31,096 nt of DNA from a virus (Duplodnaviria > Heunggongvirae > Uroviricota > Caudoviricetes). Numbering within the stretch: position 1 is the stretch's first letter; every line of letters starts with the position of its first letter. The stretch lies in the IMG/VR virus record IMGVR_UViG_2529293246_000004. One strand, written 5' to 3'. A program made the translations under genes and the position numbers. This document shows, piece after piece, positions 16,540 through 24,968 of the stretch. Below the pieces are notes generated by a model. It did not search any database. It was given only the letters and a program-made list of their open reading frames with translations, and was not told the DNA's origin.

Positions 16540-17283
16540 TTAACTGACTTTCTTTTTCGGGCGTCCACGTTTTGCCGGTGTCACGCTCCGGGTCTTACGC
16601 GGGGCGCGGGTGGCCGCTTTGGGCTGCGGCTCCGGCTTCGGTTTCAGCTCCCGCTCCAGTCGTTCAATCTCTTTTTTGACGCCTGCCTGACAGTCGAGCT
16701 GTGTCGCACGTTGCAGGTGCGCCAGCGCACCTGCGGCATCACCACCGTCACGCAGAAACAGACCGGTGATTTTGTGCAGCTTTGCGCGCACTTCATCAGG
16801 CATGTCAGCCGTGGCGGTCAGTTCAAGGGTGTCCGTCAGCAGGCGGGGATCCACAGACTCACCGGCAGCGTGAGCGCGCATGGCCGCAAGCGCCACCTCC
16901 TCGGTGAACATGTACGGCGGGGTGCGGCGGTGTTTCCCCGGCATGGTCAGACCATACTTCAGGGCATAACGGGCAATCTCCAGCGCACCGGCAATATCGC
17001 CGGTATCCAGACGCCACAGCATGACCGTCATCAGAATGTCATCCTGTGCACCTTTGCCCTGCTCCAGCACGCCGTTCACCCACGGCAACCAGAACGGCAG
17101 CAGTTCGCGTTTTTTCGCGGCCTTCAGCTCTTTTGAATAAATCGCTTTCAGTGTGCGCTGGTCTGCGGCGAGCTTAACCAGCATCTGCTCATAGACAGTT
17201 GCATGTCGCAGCGGGGCGGCTTCCCGCTGCGCGGTCATCGCTGCCGAGACCCGCATCATGTGGCGCTGTGCGGGACTCGTCAT
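16540..17283 (-). CDS. M: Terminase small (endonuclease) subunit M
   Basis: 247 aa (P2 gpM length), between N and L. Confidence 0.88.
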   Translation of the reverse strand: MTSPAQRHMMRVSAAMTAQREAAPLRHATVYEQMLVKLAADQRTLKAIYSKELKAAKKRELLPFWLPWVNGVLEQGKGAQDDILMTVMLWRLDTGDIAGALEIARYALKYGLTMPGKHRRTPPYMFTEEVALAAMRAHAAGESVDPRLLTDTLELTATADMPDEVRAKLHKITGLFLRDGGDAAGALAHLQRATQLDCQAGVKKEIERLERELKPKPEPQPKAATRAPRKTRSVTPAKRGRPKKKVS

Positions 17284-19273: not shown

Positions 19274-19446
19274 TGTCAGGAGTCCTGAATAGTGATTAGA
19301 GGAGTCACATGTCGGCATCAGTTTCCCGACGATACGCATCCTCCGCCATCAGTCCCGGATGGCTTATCACTGACACAACAGCACCTTAGCGAATCGCGGG
19401 GCGCGACTCAGTAGCCTTGCCGTGTATTCATCACGGCGAGGTATTC
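19274..19446. promoter_or_regulatory. Divergent late-promoter region (PO leftward, PP rightward)
   Basis: 173-bp gap between divergently transcribed O (minus) and P (plus), as in P2. Contains short dyads (for example CGTGtattcatCACG). Individual Ogr sites were not confidently resolved. Confidence 0.4.
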
Positions 19447-21219
19447 ATGACCATCACCACAGACACCACTCTTTTACACGACCCGCGTCGTCAGGCGGCG
19501 CTGCTGTACTGGCAGGGATTTTCCGTGCCGCAGATTGCCGCCATGTTGCAGATGAAACGCCCGACGGTGCAGAGCTGGAAACAGCGCGACGGCTGGGACA
19601 GCGTTGCCCCCATCAGCCGTGTCGAAATGAGTCTGGAAGCGCGGCTGACCCAGCTCATCATCAAACCGCAGAAAACCGGCGGTGACTTCAAGGAAATTGA
19701 CCTGCTCGGACGCCAGATTGAACGACTGGCACGGGTAAACCGTTACAGTCAGACCGGCAACGAGGCAGACCTTAATCCGAACGTCGCTAACCGCAACAAA
19801 GGCGGGCGGCGCAAACCGAAAAAGAATTTTTTCAGTGACGAGGCCATCGAAAAGCTGGAGCAGATTTTCTTTGAGCAGTCTTTCGAATATCAGTTGCACT
19901 GGTATCGCGCCGGGCTTGAGCACCGCATCCGCGATATCCTGAAATCCCGCCAGATTGGTGCAACGTTTTATTTTTCCCGCGAGGCGCTGCTGCGCGCCCT
20001 GAAAACCGGTCATAACCAGATTTTTCTGTCGGCCAGTAAAACGCAGGCGTATGTGTTCCGCGAATACATCATCGCCTTTGCCCGGCTGGTTGACGTTGAC
20101 CTGACCGGTGACCCGATTGTCCTGGGCAATAACGGCGCAAAACTGATTTTTCTCGGCACCAACTCCAACACCGCACAGAGCCATAACGGCGACCTGTACG
20201 TCGACGAGATTTTCTGGATCCCGAATTTTCAGGTACTGCGTAAGGTGGCATCAGGTATGGCCTCACAGAGTCACCTGCGCTCGACCTATTTCTCCACCCC
20301 GTCCACGCTGGCGCACGACGCCTACCCGTTCTGGTCGGGTGAACTGTTCAACCGGGGACGCGCCAGCGCCGCCGAACGCGTGGAAATCGACGTCAGTCAT
20401 AACGCCCTTGCCGGCGGGCTTCTCTGTGCGGACGGCCAGTGGCGACAGATTGTCACCATTGAGGACGCCCTGAAAGGCGGCTGCACGCTGTTCGACATTG
20501 AGCAGCTCAAACGCGAAAACAGCGCCGACGATTTTAAAAACCTGTTCATGTGTGAATTTGTTGACGACAAGGCATCGGTGTTCCCGTTCGAGGAGCTGCA
20601 ACGCTGCATGGTCGACACGCTGGAAGAATGGGAAGACTATGCACCGTTTGCCGCCAATCCGTTCGGCTCCCGCCCGGTATGGATTGGTTACGACCCGTCA
20701 CACCGTGGCGACAGCGCCGGATGCGTGGTGCTGGCACCGCCGGTGGTGGCCGGTGGCAAATTCAGAATACTTGAGCGTCACCAGTGGAAAGGCATGGACT
20801 TTGCCACCCAGGCTGAATCCATCCGCAAACTCACCGAAAAATATAACGTCGAATACATCGGTATTGATGCCACCGGCCTCGGTGTCGGCGTGTTCCAGCT
20901 CGTGCGCTCGTTCTATCCTGCCGCGCGCGATATCCGCTACACACCGGAAATGAAAACCGCAATGGTGCTCAAGGCCAAAGACGTTATCCGCCGTGGCTGT
21001 CTGGAATATGACGTCAGCGCCACCGACATCACCAGCTCGTTCATGGCTATCCGCAAGACCATGACCAGCAGCGGACGCAGCGCCACCTATGAGGCCAGCC
21101 GCAGCGAGGAAGCCAGCCACGCCGACCTCGCCTGGGCGACCATGCACGCCCTGTTAAATGAGCCACTCACCGCCGGTATCAGCACCCCGCTGACATCCAC
21201 CATTCTGGAGTTTTACTGA
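19447..21219 (+). CDS. P: Terminase large (ATPase) subunit P
   Basis: ORF 19417..21219 trimmed to MTITTDTTLLHDPRRQAALLYWQGF..., giving 590 aa as in P2 gpP. Confidence 0.9.
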   Translation: MTITTDTTLLHDPRRQAALLYWQGFSVPQIAAMLQMKRPTVQSWKQRDGWDSVAPISRVEMSLEARLTQLIIKPQKTGGDFKEIDLLGRQIERLARVNRYSQTGNEADLNPNVANRNKGGRRKPKKNFFSDEAIEKLEQIFFEQSFEYQLHWYRAGLEHRIRDILKSRQIGATFYFSREALLRALKTGHNQIFLSASKTQAYVFREYIIAFARLVDVDLTGDPIVLGNNGAKLIFLGTNSNTAQSHNGDLYVDEIFWIPNFQVLRKVASGMASQSHLRSTYFSTPSTLAHDAYPFWSGELFNRGRASAAERVEIDVSHNALAGGLLCADGQWRQIVTIEDALKGGCTLFDIEQLKRENSADDFKNLFMCEFVDDKASVFPFEELQRCMVDTLEEWEDYAPFAANPFGSRPVWIGYDPSHRGDSAGCVVLAPPVVAGGKFRILERHQWKGMDFATQAESIRKLTEKYNVEYIGIDATGLGVGVFQLVRSFYPAARDIRYTPEMKTAMVLKAKDVIRRGCLEYDVSATDITSSFMAIRKTMTSSGRSATYEASRSEEASHADLAWATMHALLNEPLTAGISTPLTSTILEFY

Positions 21220-22253
21220 TGAGCAAGAAAAAAGGGAAAACACCGCAACCTGCGGCAAAAACAATGACCGCCAGCGCCCCGAAAATGGAGGCATTCACCT
21301 TTGGTGAGCCGGTGCCGGTACTCGACCGCCGTGACATTCTGGATTACGTCGAGTGCATCAGTAACGGCAGATGGTATGAGCCGCCGGTCAGCTTTACCGG
21401 TCTGGCAAAAAGCCTGCGTGCTGCCGTGCATCACAGCTCACCGATTTACGTCAAACGCAATATTCTGGCTTCAACGTTTATCCCGCACCCGTGGCTTTCC
21501 CAGCAGGATTTCAGCCGCTTTGTGCTGGATTTTCTGGTGTTCGGTAATGCGTTTCTGGAAAAGCGTTACAGCACCACCGGCAAGGTCATCAGACTGGAAA
21601 CCTCACCGGCAAAATATACCCGCCGTGGCGTGGAGGAGGATGTTTACTGGTGGGTGCCTTCCTTCAACGAGCCGACAGCCTTCGCACCTGGCTCCGTGTT
21701 TCATCTGCTGGAGCCGGATATTAATCAGGAGCTGTACGGCCTGCCGGAATATCTCAGCGCCCTTAACTCTGCCTGGCTGAATGAGTCGGCCACGCTGTTC
21801 CGCCGCAAGTATTACGAAAACGGCGCGCATGCCGGATACATCATGTACGTTACCGATGCCGTGCAGGATCGCAACGATATCGAAATGCTTCGCGAAAACA
21901 TGGTGAAGTCGAAAGGCCGCAACAACTTTAAAAACCTGTTTCTCTATGCCCCGCAGGGGAAAGCCGACGGCATTAAAATTATCCCGCTCAGTGAAGTGGC
22001 GACGAAGGACGATTTTTTTAATATCAAAAAAGCCAGCGCCGCTGACCTGCTGGACGCACACCGCATCCCCTTTCAGTTGATGGGTGGCAAGCCGGAGAAC
22101 GTCGGGTCACTGGGCGATATTGAGAAAGTGGCAAAGGTCTTTGTCCGCAATGAGCTAATCCCGTTACAGGACAGGATTCGGGAAATAAACGGCTGGCTCG
22201 GCCAGGAGGTCATCCGCTTTAAAAACTACTCACTGGACACTGACAACGGCTGA
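21219..22253 (+). CDS. Q: Portal protein Q
   Basis: 344 aa (P2 gpQ length). ATG overlaps the P stop. Last gene before cos. Confidence 0.9.
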   Translation: MSKKKGKTPQPAAKTMTASAPKMEAFTFGEPVPVLDRRDILDYVECISNGRWYEPPVSFTGLAKSLRAAVHHSSPIYVKRNILASTFIPHPWLSQQDFSRFVLDFLVFGNAFLEKRYSTTGKVIRLETSPAKYTRRGVEEDVYWWVPSFNEPTAFAPGSVFHLLEPDINQELYGLPEYLSALNSAWLNESATLFRRKYYENGAHAGYIMYVTDAVQDRNDIEMLRENMVKSKGRNNFKNLFLYAPQGKADGIKIIPLSEVATKDDFFNIKKASAADLLDAHRIPFQLMGGKPENVGSLGDIEKVAKVFVRNELIPLQDRIREINGWLGQEVIRFKNYSLDTDNG

Positions 22254-22257
22254 ACAT

Positions 22258-22278
22258 CGCCGCCTGCGGGCGGCTTTT
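22258..22278 (+). terminator. Rho-independent terminator after Q
   Basis: CGCCC-tgc-GGGCG stem-loop followed by gc and TTTTTT, 5 nt past the Q stop codon. Confidence 0.6.
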
Positions 22279-22422
22279 TTACACCCCGTCATCACGCCCT
22301 CACACGCTCACCACCGCACAAAACAGCCCGCAGACACACCAACGCCCCGGCGCACAATCTAAACGCCATTACGACGCGCTGAGACGCTGAAAAAATAAAA
22401 TCAGCACCACCGCCAGCGCGCA

Positions 22423-22441
22423 GTGCTTTCCCCGCCTCGCC
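22423..22441. other. cos: cos site (19-nt cohesive-end sequence), internal to the element
   Basis: Plus strand reads GTGCTTTCCCCGCCTCGCC, the reverse complement of GGCGAGGCGGGGAAAGCAC, which I recall as the P2 cohesive end. The adjacent reverse-complement sequence (ACTGCGCGCTG...GGTGGTGCTGATT) also resembles the P2 left end. Confidence 0.8.
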
Positions 22442-22679
22442 CGCCCGCTTCATGGAGCGGTTTTAATGCAGTTGCATAGATACTATGGATCCGCACCAGT
22501 CCTGACCGCACGCAGCCTGAACGGACATCCCCGACGCATGCAAAAACATTCACTTGTTGCATGCAACGGCTTATTTAATGACAAACCAACTTAAATTTAC
22601 AAAATCCACAGGTATGGATACTTTGCGAACATGATAGGCTTACGAGAATTATCGTGCCTGTTTTTGAACGGAGAAAGTT

Positions 22680-23621
22680 ATGCAAGGTGAAGTTGACGAA
22701 CAGCAACCAAATGAGATTATTTCGGAGTTTGGATACTATCCAGTAGAAGTTAACATTGAGACTGAACAATTTTCTTTGCGTACTTTACCCGGTCTTATTG
22801 AGAAAGTGGAACGTATTAACAATGATAAAAACGTTGTTAATGGTTGGATATACCCTGGGAATCGAGAGGTATATAACCTTAATGGTGACTCATGCACAAT
22901 GCCTTATAGTTACCGAGTATTCGGCATGCCCAAAACGCACACACTAAAATTAAAAAACACATCCTCGTTAGAAACTCTCAACTTTGTTGTGTGGTGCCTC
23001 TCTTTTTTCAAGGGTATAAGATTGACAACCACTGACGCTGGTTTTCTTGATGCAACCACTATCAAGCCCACTAAGTTAACCGATTTTATTCTCGTTGGAT
23101 GCTCTGAAAAAGAAGTCATAGAACTGGCTCTTAATTATATAACTAACAAACAAAAGGATGCGCACTCCCCCAAAAGAATTGCGGCAGTGGTGCATGCGCT
23201 ATTCTTATCTCAAAACCCACAATACCTTCCTTTTGAAAAATTCCAGTACCTTTACATGGCACTTGATGGTTGCTTTGCTTTATCGTGGGCTGAGCATGAC
23301 AAGGCTCCTGATAAAACCCAGCCAAATCATTCCAAGCGATTAAAGTGGATGTGCAGAATTTATGGGTTATCAATCCCCACATGGGTATCAGGCAAAAAAA
23401 ACATTTCTGGCATCCGCAATGATAATTTTCATGAGGCTATTTTTTTTGGCCAACCACTTGGTTTTTCCAGTGTTAACAACAATCAATATGGTAACGATAT
23501 ATTACTGCAAATGCAGAAACTCGTTTGTCGCCTATTAGCGGCAATACTGTCGGTTAATGATTGCGGTTATCTCAAATCTTCGGTCAACTCACGAGAGTAC
23601 CATTCATTAAAATTAACTTAA
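22680..23621 (+). CDS. Hypothetical cargo protein, 313 aa, at the position P2 uses for old
   Basis: ATG at 22680 with GGAGA 7 nt upstream. AT-rich. I recognise no conserved motif and see no Walker A P-loop. Opposite strand to the early operon, as P2 old is. Confidence 0.6.
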   Translation: MQGEVDEQQPNEIISEFGYYPVEVNIETEQFSLRTLPGLIEKVERINNDKNVVNGWIYPGNREVYNLNGDSCTMPYSYRVFGMPKTHTLKLKNTSSLETLNFVVWCLSFFKGIRLTTTDAGFLDATTIKPTKLTDFILVGCSEKEVIELALNYITNKQKDAHSPKRIAAVVHALFLSQNPQYLPFEKFQYLYMALDGCFALSWAEHDKAPDKTQPNHSKRLKWMCRIYGLSIPTWVSGKKNISGIRNDNFHEAIFFGQPLGFSSVNNNQYGNDILLQMQKLVCRLLAAILSVNDCGYLKSSVNSREYHSLKLT

Positions 23622-23941: not shown

Positions 23942-24622
23942 CTACATCTTTATTGCATATTTATTAAAAGACGCCCAGTTCAACAAAAAAACATTATTCA
24001 TATACCATTCAATATAATTTTTATTTTTAGATTGACTGTCAAGTAGCACACAAACATCAACCTGTTTATCAATCAATTTTGCAATATAAACCACAAACTC
24101 AACACTCGAATATCTCTTTGTGCCTAGCAAATATAATATTTCATCTGACAAATAATTAGACTCATGTGAAAAGACATTATCATTTAACAAAATCAATCCG
24201 CCAATCGAGTCATTTAAATCCAAAACATCCTTTGTTGCATTTATTTGCTTATTAGCTTCTTTAACTACCTTTGTTTTAATATTTTCATAAGCAAAGTTCA
24301 TTATATCATTTCTAAATCGCTTTGAGTCTGGGTGTCTTTTTATCAACTCTTCTAAATGAATAGCACCATGCCAGTTTTTTGCAAGCCAACTATCAGTTTT
24401 AACCAACTCATTCAGTTTATCATTGACATTCTTGACCCTGTCAGAAAAAAGACTTTTCATCTCCAAAATTATCTTTTTATTATCAATAAGATAATCTGCC
24501 ATCTTGCGATTCTGACCATCCTTCATCCGGAACTTATGATGAATATCATCAATAGAAATCCCTTTTTCATGCTCAACAATGAATCTCTTAACATTGTTTT
24601 CTAATTCGCTGTATTGTTTCAT
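23942..24622 (-). CDS. Hypothetical cargo protein, 226 aa, at the position P2 uses for tin
   Basis: ATG at 24622 with GGGGGA upstream. Markedly AT-rich, Lys/Asn-rich protein with no motif I recognise. Directly downstream of a small gene on the same strand. Confidence 0.6.
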   Translation of the reverse strand: MKQYSELENNVKRFIVEHEKGISIDDIHHKFRMKDGQNRKMADYLIDNKKIILEMKSLFSDRVKNVNDKLNELVKTDSWLAKNWHGAIHLEELIKRHPDSKRFRNDIMNFAYENIKTKVVKEANKQINATKDVLDLNDSIGGLILLNDNVFSHESNYLSDEILYLLGTKRYSSVEFVVYIAKLIDKQVDVCVLLDSQSKNKNYIEWYMNNVFLLNWASFNKYAIKM

Positions 24623-24649: not shown

Positions 24650-24841
24650 TCACTTACGTGGACGACACAGCATACCACTTTTACTCTCTGCTATTTCCAG
24701 TAAATCAATGGAGAATGACTCCTCGTGCAAAACTCCTTCTTTATCATGCCAAATACATTTAGCATGAGTCTCAGTAGAGTCAGATACAGTCATTTTAAAT
24801 CCACCGCTTTTCAAACAAACAACATCTGCAGGCTTTAACAT
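24650..24841 (-). CDS. Small DUF2158/YodC-like protein, 63 aa
   Basis: ORF 24650..24925 trimmed to the ATG at 24841, which has GGAGA 5-6 nt upstream. Sequence MLKPADVVCLKSGGFKMTVSDSTETHAKCIWHDKEGVLHEESF resembles the GD-VV-LKSGGP-MTV...C-W core of YodC-like small proteins. First gene of a two-gene minus-strand unit. Confidence 0.55.
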   Translation of the reverse strand: MLKPADVVCLKSGGFKMTVSDSTETHAKCIWHDKEGVLHEESFSIDLLEIAESKSGMLCRPRK

Positions 24842-24968
24842 TTTTGTCTCCAACATTTTTAAGTAATGCATTATAACATAATGATATTGACGTAGATTTA
24901 ATGCATGCAACCATATAAAAAACAATCAATTACAGTCAAAACTGCTTAATACTGTATAGATGAGATCA

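Follow-up and report, generated by a model that had tools for sequence, protein, structure and literature searches.

Phased ATGCA repeats next to the cohesive end of a P2-like phage probably form the recognition part of its cos packaging site

The analyzed sequence (IMG/VR record IMGVR_UViG_2529293246_000004), whose whole stretch of 31,096 nucleotides is called the window below, belongs to a P2-like phage and runs opposite to the P2 map. It encodes the terminase small subunit gpM (16540..17283, minus strand; Pfam PF05944 Phage_term_smal, E=1.4e-47), the terminase large subunit gpP (19417..21219, plus strand; Terminase_6N and Terminase_6C) and the portal protein gpQ (21219..22253, plus strand; PF04860 Phage_portal), which is 99.7% identical to P2 Q by tblastn and whose gene marks the left side of cos on the P2 map. 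The N-terminal part of gpP contains a helix-turn-helix (PF06056 Terminase_5 at residues 22-79; HTH_23, E=1.4e-7), and a gpP homologue in ON470606 carries the annotation GpP. The portal gene is followed by an intrinsic terminator (22259..22281, plus strand), which was detected by a terminator scan as GCCGCCTGCGGGCGGC and a T run and resembles tQ, annotated at the equivalent place in the P2 record. The cargo part of the locus, located outside the cos element, includes ORF313 (22680..23621, plus strand) and, downstream of it, ORF226 (23942-24622, minus strand), after which comes gene A. The same order, ORF313, ORF226 and gene A, was deposited as P2-EC67 (AM157369); ORF313 is annotated there, and the window segment 22469-22700 (the ORF313 upstream region and the 5' end of the gene) matches that record at 99.6%. 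The cos-adjacent locus is a hotspot of P2-like phages (PMC9122126). We tested the placement of cos at this locus and found that it adjoins portal gene Q and has the terminase genes P and M nearby, all three supported by Pfam.

Using the cohesive-end pattern, we gathered cos regions from IMG/VR and, together with those of P2 and 186, obtained 105 distinct sequences, P4-like satellites included. These were grouped into 43 clusters by spacer sequence (<65% identity), 32 clusters by downstream sequence and 14 clusters by upstream sequence. A first alignment, from cos to +280, covered P2 and 186, two E. coli phages and one phage each of Klebsiella and Yersinia. All offsets are counted with position 22423 of the window taken as +1.

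The 19-nt 5' cohesive-end sequence GGCGAGGCGGGGAAAGCAC has an exact reverse-complement match at 22423-22441, between portal gene Q and the A-proximal variable cargo locus. The window sequence at this staggered-nick site, GTGCTTTCCCCGCCTCGCC (22423..22441), is the reverse complement of P2 cosL, and the segment agrees in full with cosL/cosR as annotated in NC_001895. The deposited phage genome OQ383618.1 starts exactly at the base equivalent to 22423. Around the cohesive end, near-invariant alignment columns span offsets -7 to +55 among both the 43 spacer and the 14 upstream cluster representatives, which delimits an invariant core of ~62 bp (22416-22477) terminating in AATGCAgtTGCAt. Its left edge is formed by GCGCGCA at offsets -7 to -1 (22416..22422); the upstream, Q-side conservation begins only at -7, as judged from 14 unrelated upstream contexts. 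The right half of the core, +20 to +55 (22442..22477), consists of a hairpin-like CCGCTTCATGGAGCGG, a T run and a terminal AATGCAGTTGCAT. Covariation was considered for the core hairpin (22445-22460), and no clean covariation was seen among its variants. Megablast gave matches in 2116 of the 5426 complete E. coli genomes, most of them ending at +54/+55, and only 80 genomes possess the ORF313 junction.

A '55-bp core' of this cos site is attributed to Ziermann & Calendar 1990 in two later papers (PMC5694545, PMC3931495); it takes in the first palindrome of the region and excludes the three repeats described below. The near-invariant stretch ending at +54/+55 corresponds to this cited element, a core around the cohesive end that P2, 186 and P4 have in common.

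The end of the core contains the pentamer ATGCA at 22466-22470 (+44) and an inverted TGCAT at 22473-22477. ATGCA starts at +41 to +45 in 101 of the 105 unique cos regions, and among the 43 cluster representatives ATGCR is found at exactly +44 in all but one (42/43). The inverted TGCAT at +51 to +55 is present in 64/105 cos regions and absent from P2 itself. The two pentamers make up the first palindrome of the initial annotation (22466..22477), ATGCAGTTGCAT, a 5-bp inverted repeat ATGCA/TGCAT around GT; it is present as described, one base to the left of the 22467-22478 given for it. Beyond the core lies a spacer of ~60 nt (22478..22535), whose sequences are unrelated between the 43 clusters (<65% identity), yet whose length is constant. 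A semi-conserved inverted repeat of the GCGCCAG..CTGGCG type, suspected by eye within the spacer (+58 to +104), was dropped, as the mean best arm among the 43 representatives was 3.65 compared with 3.79 in shuffles, i.e. no longer.

The spacer is followed by three direct copies of the pentamer, here named R1, R2 and R3. R1, GCATGCAAAA (22536..22545, plus strand), includes ATGCA at 22538-22542 (+116) and the left arm of the inverted repeat noticed initially. ATGCA was found at +116 to +120 in 83/105 sequences and in 35/43 representatives, with the consensus ATGCAAA. R2 (22547..22553, plus strand) lies exactly 10 bp past R1 and reads CATTCAC (+126), a decayed CATGCAC. Its pentamer ATTCA (22548-22552) shows a G-to-T change common to the closest relatives of the window; the same position in 186, P2 and P4 reads CATGCAC or AATGCAC. 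ATGCA starts at +126 to +130 in 73/105 cos regions, R2 is located at +125 to +127 in 37/43 representatives, and the step from R1 to R2 equals 10 bp in 33 of 34 representatives. R3, TTGCATGCAA (22557..22566, plus strand), includes ATGCA at 22561-22565 (+139) and the right arm of the initially noticed repeat, and it is the last conserved element of the region. ATGCA occurs at +136 to +140 in 66/105 sequences; R3 is less strict than the other copies, lying 9-13 bp from R2 and having an exact ATGCA in only 23/43 representatives. At least two of the three array copies are retained in 36/43 representatives with <65% identical spacers. In the flanks, ATGCA has a background of 16 occurrences in 18,146 positions. 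Several copies of one motif occur on one side of the nick (+44, +116, +126 and ~+136-139) and none on the Q side, where no ATGCA peak was found among the 105 cos regions. Over this stretch, isolated phages show 96.8-99.1% identity to the window despite the degenerate R2, which suggests that an exact R2 is dispensable.

Support for the reality of these sites comes from conservation and not from the statistics of the window itself. As claimed, the window holds the 8-bp inverted repeat, GCATGCAA (22536-22543) and TTGCATGC (22557-22564) being 13 nt apart, and between R1 and R3 it extends to 16 nt at 81% complementarity, a feature that would suit the initial suggestion that these dyads serve as an operator for a dimeric transcription regulator controlling ORF313. 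However, shuffling 22450-22680 with dinucleotides preserved produced a perfect 8-bp inverted repeat (loop <=30 nt) in 184 of 2000 cases (9%), and the 8-bp dyad by itself is not significant. ATGCA is under-represented window-wide, with 76 matches compared with 104 +/- 11 expected; five of them within 111 bp (22460-22570) are the window maximum, but other stretches equal it. The right arm TTGCATGC belongs to the 10-bp palindrome TTGCATGCAA (22557-22566), and GCATGCAA occurs at both 22536 and 22559 as a perfect direct repeat; the two arms are also a direct repeat because GCATGC is its own reverse complement.

It is the direct repeats that recur family-wide, and many relatives lack any inverted repeat. 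For instance, one cos region (L018) has four tandem AATGCAA copies, and L018 and another region, L022, exemplify three or four copies without the dyad. By these comparisons, the family conserves direct, helically phased ATGCA repeats, with R1 and R2 one helical turn apart, and not dyad symmetry. From the relatives lacking the dyad, and from P2, which lacks the second half of the first palindrome, the 8-bp inverted repeat of the window is a lineage-specific by-product of the palindromic GCATGC flanks on R1 and R3.

The border between the conserved array and the cargo was located by comparing phages with different downstream genes. In the first alignment, homology between phages with different cargo stops at about 22567-22571, and both dyad regions are common to 186-type phages with quite different downstream genes (tum, orf97), so that the dyads go with the conserved packaging region and not with the cargo insertion. 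Four cos regions (L025, L029, L066 and L099) are 96-98% identical to the window from +1 to +140 and then diverge right past R3 (22565); L025 carries just a small 88-aa ORF ahead of gene A. Conversely, the ORF313 module with both of its candidate promoters is also found behind 186-type cos with an intact R2 (L007, L083). These two observations indicate that the cos array and the cargo module assort independently, with a junction at ~+143 to +147. The 5' part of the ORF313 module (22566..22679, plus strand) is shared only with ORF313 carriers, some of which have a 186-type cos.

This 5' part holds two candidate sigma-70 promoters, at 22578-22605 and 22623-22652, as well as a ribosome-binding site GGAG at 22670-22673, annotated in AM157369. 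The second candidate is the promoter proposed initially, TTGCGA and AATTAT; both hexamers are present, at 22623-22628 and 22647-22652, and their spacer measures 18 nt instead of the 17 nt claimed. With 8/12 consensus positions it falls under the 9/12 cut-off of the promoter scan, which instead lists ATGACA-16-CAAAAT at 22578-22605. Neither candidate is favoured by conservation among the ORF313 carriers. The inverted repeat of R1 and R3 lies 13-60 bp upstream of the candidate promoters, as an operator might; nevertheless, the promoter-like sites belong to the cargo module, which begins at ~22566 after R3, so the repeats do not travel with the promoter or the gene. Pfam and PADLOC searches gave zero matches for ORF313 and ORF226, with no DNA-binding or other known domain, and a 91-aa ORF matches DUF2158 only; hence no cognate DNA-binding regulator was detected by Pfam/PADLOC among these three ORFs, which further speaks against an operator.

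The array is equally independent of what lies downstream on a larger scale. The same layout, at fixed cos offsets, is found ahead of 32 unrelated downstream contexts. In 186 the terminator of a converging gene lies next to cos, and in P4 the 3' end of psu does; with the adjacent gene pointing towards cos, neither has a promoter there for the sites to regulate. The satellite P4 carries AATGCAGTTGCAC and GCATGCAAAGCCATGCACCTTATCGATGCATGG at the same offsets as the window. P2 and P4 are reported to have essentially only cos in common (PMC9122126, PMC9594776), and P4-like satellites have no terminase of their own (PMC9122126). That satellites keep the array of their helper although they lack a terminase ties the array to packaging.

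We further compared eleven cos regions, namely those of ten phages of several genera and of satellite P4. In all eleven, the distances from the core copy to R1, R2 and R3 are 71-72, 81-82 and 91-100 bp, respectively, although an R3 equivalent is missing from phiCTX and Shewanella M16-3. The pentamer itself differs by phage lineage (ATGCA, GTGCA, CTGCR, ACGCR), also between two E. coli phages. ATGCA or ATGCR is found in P2, 186, P4, PSP3, Ralstonia RSA1 (ATGCA; 71, 81 and 100 bp from the core copy) and Burkholderia KS5 (ATGCR; 71, 81 and 94 bp); RSA1 and KS5 have a different cohesive end and keep ATGCA. Escherichia P88 and Enterobacter phiT5282H possess GTGCA as the core pentamer and throughout the three-copy array (72, 82 and 92 bp in both). 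Pseudomonas phiCTX has CTGCR at 71 and 81 bp with an extra copy at 55 bp, and Shewanella M16-3 has ACGCR at 71 and 81 bp. The comparison omits four phages (E. coli 813R9, Fels-2, Pseudomonas PaBSM-2607 and Vibrio PV94), as no P2-type cos core was found within ~900 bp downstream of their Q genes, and in some of them another gene follows Q. A different repeat, TTTCCGTG, was observed in HP1, whose genome layout differs and whose orientation is provisional.

Each phage in this comparison has the same pentamer variant in its core copy as in its array. Since the core copy and the array share the variant within each phage, the two are likely to be read by one protein, and since P2 and P88 share a host and differ in the pentamer, this reader is argued to be encoded by the phage. 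The concerted change of the pentamer thus points to a single phage-encoded reader, most likely the terminase.

Taken together, these observations favour the reading, to which we assign a probability of about three in four, that the repeats are the recognition part of the phage cos packaging site rather than a site that regulates the cargo gene. The initial annotation had offered a packaging-related site as its second option, and this option is borne out by the occurrence of the sites at fixed cos offsets in P2, 186, PSP3, P4 and ~100 other cos regions. The element as a whole is a P2-family cos site, of an ordinary and already known kind. The site consists of an invariant core with one ATGCA, a spacer of fixed length and free sequence, and the three direct copies R1-R3, with the cargo module (promoter and ORF313) joined immediately past R3. 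We infer that the terminase would bind the pentamers along a single helical face, which would bring its nuclease to the 19-mer ~100 bp away and single out the DNA to be packaged. As candidate readers, either or both of the small subunit gpM (PF05944) and the helix-turn-helix at the N-terminus of the large subunit gpP come into question, and the window encodes both. The P4-like satellites would keep the array so that the terminase of the helper packages them. P2/P4 cosmids with longer cos flanks are reported to transduce ~10^4-fold better than those with short flanks (PMC9594776), as would be expected if DNA outside the 55-bp core were required. A literature search on the direction of P2 packaging found nothing. 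Instead of anchoring the terminase, the array could have a role in ending packaging or in bending the DNA.

Two further explanations were considered. In one, an architectural protein of the host would bind the pentamers of cos, or the pentamers would themselves bend or phase the DNA; we consider this unlikely. The spacing of one helical turn and the flanking A/T tracts (e.g. AAAAAAATTGTGCAAATTTGTGCA in P88) do resemble bent-DNA sites, and IHF sites are annotated in a wider region around cos in the phiCTX record. However, phages of the same host differ, as with ATGCA in P2 and GTGCA in P88, both from E. coli, and ATGCA recurs in phages whose hosts are as distant as E. coli, Ralstonia and Burkholderia; therefore the pentamer tracks the phage lineage and not the host. 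Moreover, the core copy beside the nick site changes together with the array. To our knowledge, ATGCA matches no host-factor consensus.

It can also be speculated that the packaging array has a dual use, with terminase occupancy late in infection also shutting off the adjacent cargo or defence gene, or with transcription modulating that gene; we regard this as improbable. Its appeal lies in the layout: the annotated old-tin starts of P2 at 33424/33426 (+168/+170) place a predicted -35 element, TTGAAT, at +134-139, overlapping R3, and the best-scoring promoter-like site of the window starts 13 bp past R3. On the other hand, the ORF313 promoter is a predicted one, the regulatory link would have to be deduced from this arrangement, and the layout may just reflect selection for cargo close to an indispensable element.

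The operator reading is very improbable and already largely refuted by cargo-independent conservation: because the sites are kept in P2-like genomes regardless of cargo, the pattern that the initial annotation itself had linked to cos function, the operator idea fails on its own terms.

Returning to the cos reading, annotation of this region should assign the dyads to cos and not to the regulation of the cargo gene, and the border of the P2 defence/cargo hotspot can be set at the last pentamer repeat. As a tentative extension, which we place somewhat short of even odds, the cos of Peduoviridae may hold a specificity code of fixed geometry, in which a lineage-specific pentamer (ATGCA, GTGCA, CTGCR or ACGCR) closes the core, two to three more copies lie 72, 82 and ~92-95 bp away on one helical face beyond the spacer, and the array, not the 55-bp core by itself, decides which terminase pairs with which genome and hence which helper a P4-like satellite can use. 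A literature search on ATGCA with terminase and cos gave nothing relevant, and the geometry of the pentamer array may be under-described, the literature examined giving the 55-bp core only and not the three phased repeats. A rule for the array would be useful for the design of efficient P2/P4 cosmids, for predicting helper-satellite compatibility and for locating cos in prophages.

Among known systems, the closest is the cos of P2, 186 and P4 (Peduoviridae and their satellites), reportedly defined by the functional dissection of Ziermann and Calendar in 1990. The window shares with it the 19-nt cohesive end, the invariant core and the position between Q and the variable locus by gene A, and it has the same pentamer array at the same offsets as 186, PSP3 and P4. 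It differs in the G-to-T change of R2 (ATTCA) and in the downstream cargo, which is ORF313 and ORF226 as in P2-EC67, old and tin in P2, and orf97 and tum in 186.

The cosB site of phage lambda comprises the sites R3-R2-R1, which are bound by the small terminase subunit gpNu1, and an IHF site. By analogy, the window has short repeats clustered on one side of the nick, ~50-150 bp off, which presumably anchor the terminase. Unlike those of cosB, the window repeats are direct and 10 bp apart, with one further copy inside the core and no sequence similarity to the lambda sites, and no IHF consensus was seen between them. In contrast to lambda, the large subunit of the P2 type has its own N-terminal helix-turn-helix. 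A further difference from lambda is that packaging in P2 reportedly proceeds from monomeric circles (PMC2231350).

Within the P2 family, the phiCTX record (NC_003278) annotates a 'region3, containing R4, R5, R6 repeats', that is, repeats spanning cos. The CTGCR copies of phiCTX lie 0, 9, 55, 71 and 81 bp from the core copy and match the 0/72/82 geometry of the window; phiCTX differs from the window in its pentamer CTGCR, the extra copy and the cohesive end. Finally, relative to the P2 hotspot or TO-region (Odegrip et al. 2006; Rousset et al. 2022, PMC9122126), the repeats form the border on the cos side: they lie outside the hotspot cargo, as a fixed flank against which cargo modules swap.

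The large terminase subunit, gpP (19417-21219, + strand), carries an N-terminal helix-turn-helix at residues 22-79 (PF06056 Terminase_5; HTH_23, E=1.4e-7), which comes on top of its ATPase and nuclease domains. Given the presence of this N-terminal domain, cos sequences could be read by the large subunit itself.

The ATGCA pentamer, which is repeated in the cos core and the adjoining array, is rarer than expected over the whole window, with 76 matches on both strands versus 104 +/- 11 in shuffled sequences, and all 100 shuffles of the window contained at least 76 copies. The scarcity of ATGCA outside cos could mean that spurious recognition sites are avoided, or it could stem from a simple compositional bias. 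A second local cluster of ATGCA/ATGCAT, amounting to five hits when both strands are counted, was observed at 24866-24909, inside a 91-aa ORF with a DUF2158 match (24650-24925, - strand) that lies immediately downstream of gene A. This cluster has no evident link to cos.

Repeats of other kinds were observed in two other phages. In Haemophilus phage HP1 (NC_001697), a different motif, (A/T)TTTCCGTG, occurs three times close to the end of the genome, at about 4-13, 36-46 and 98-110 of the reverse complement of the right end. These copies may be analogous recognition repeats for a divergent terminase. In Shewanella phage M16-3, three tandem 9-bp repeats, GCGATCCAC, lie beyond the array of ACGCR, the counterpart of ATGCA in this phage, about 229-255 nt past the stop codon of the portal gene Q.

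The terminator scan detected a hairpin-like element, CCGCTTCATGGAGCGG followed by TTTT, within the invariant cos core (22445-22464), which is terminator-like on the + strand. Its variants in relatives do not show clean covariation. The hairpin may keep transcripts that read past Q from entering cos or the cargo, or it may belong to the terminase substrate.

Two relatives with another small cargo gene (L019 and L132) share ACGGCTTATTTAATGACAAA(T/C)CAACTTAA with the window at 22566-22594 and diverge from it only from ~22594/22595. On this sequence comparison, the latter position is a second recombination junction, located within what is otherwise the ORF313 cargo module. On the opposite side of cos, the P2-like phages vB_EcoM-613R3, 813R9 and Fels-2 either carry an additional gene that separates Q from cos or lack a cos in the 900 bp next to Q; in some lineages, therefore, cargo can be acquired on the Q side as well.

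The cargo genes of the window are ORF313 (22680-23621, + strand), whose junction is present in ~80 of 5426 complete E. coli genomes, and ORF226 (23942-24622, - strand). Neither protein had a match in the Pfam or PADLOC searches, and the two genes may constitute an uncharacterised defence or exclusion pair. Both occupy the cos-adjacent cargo hotspot of P2, and the same two genes are found in this hotspot in P2-EC67 (AM157369).
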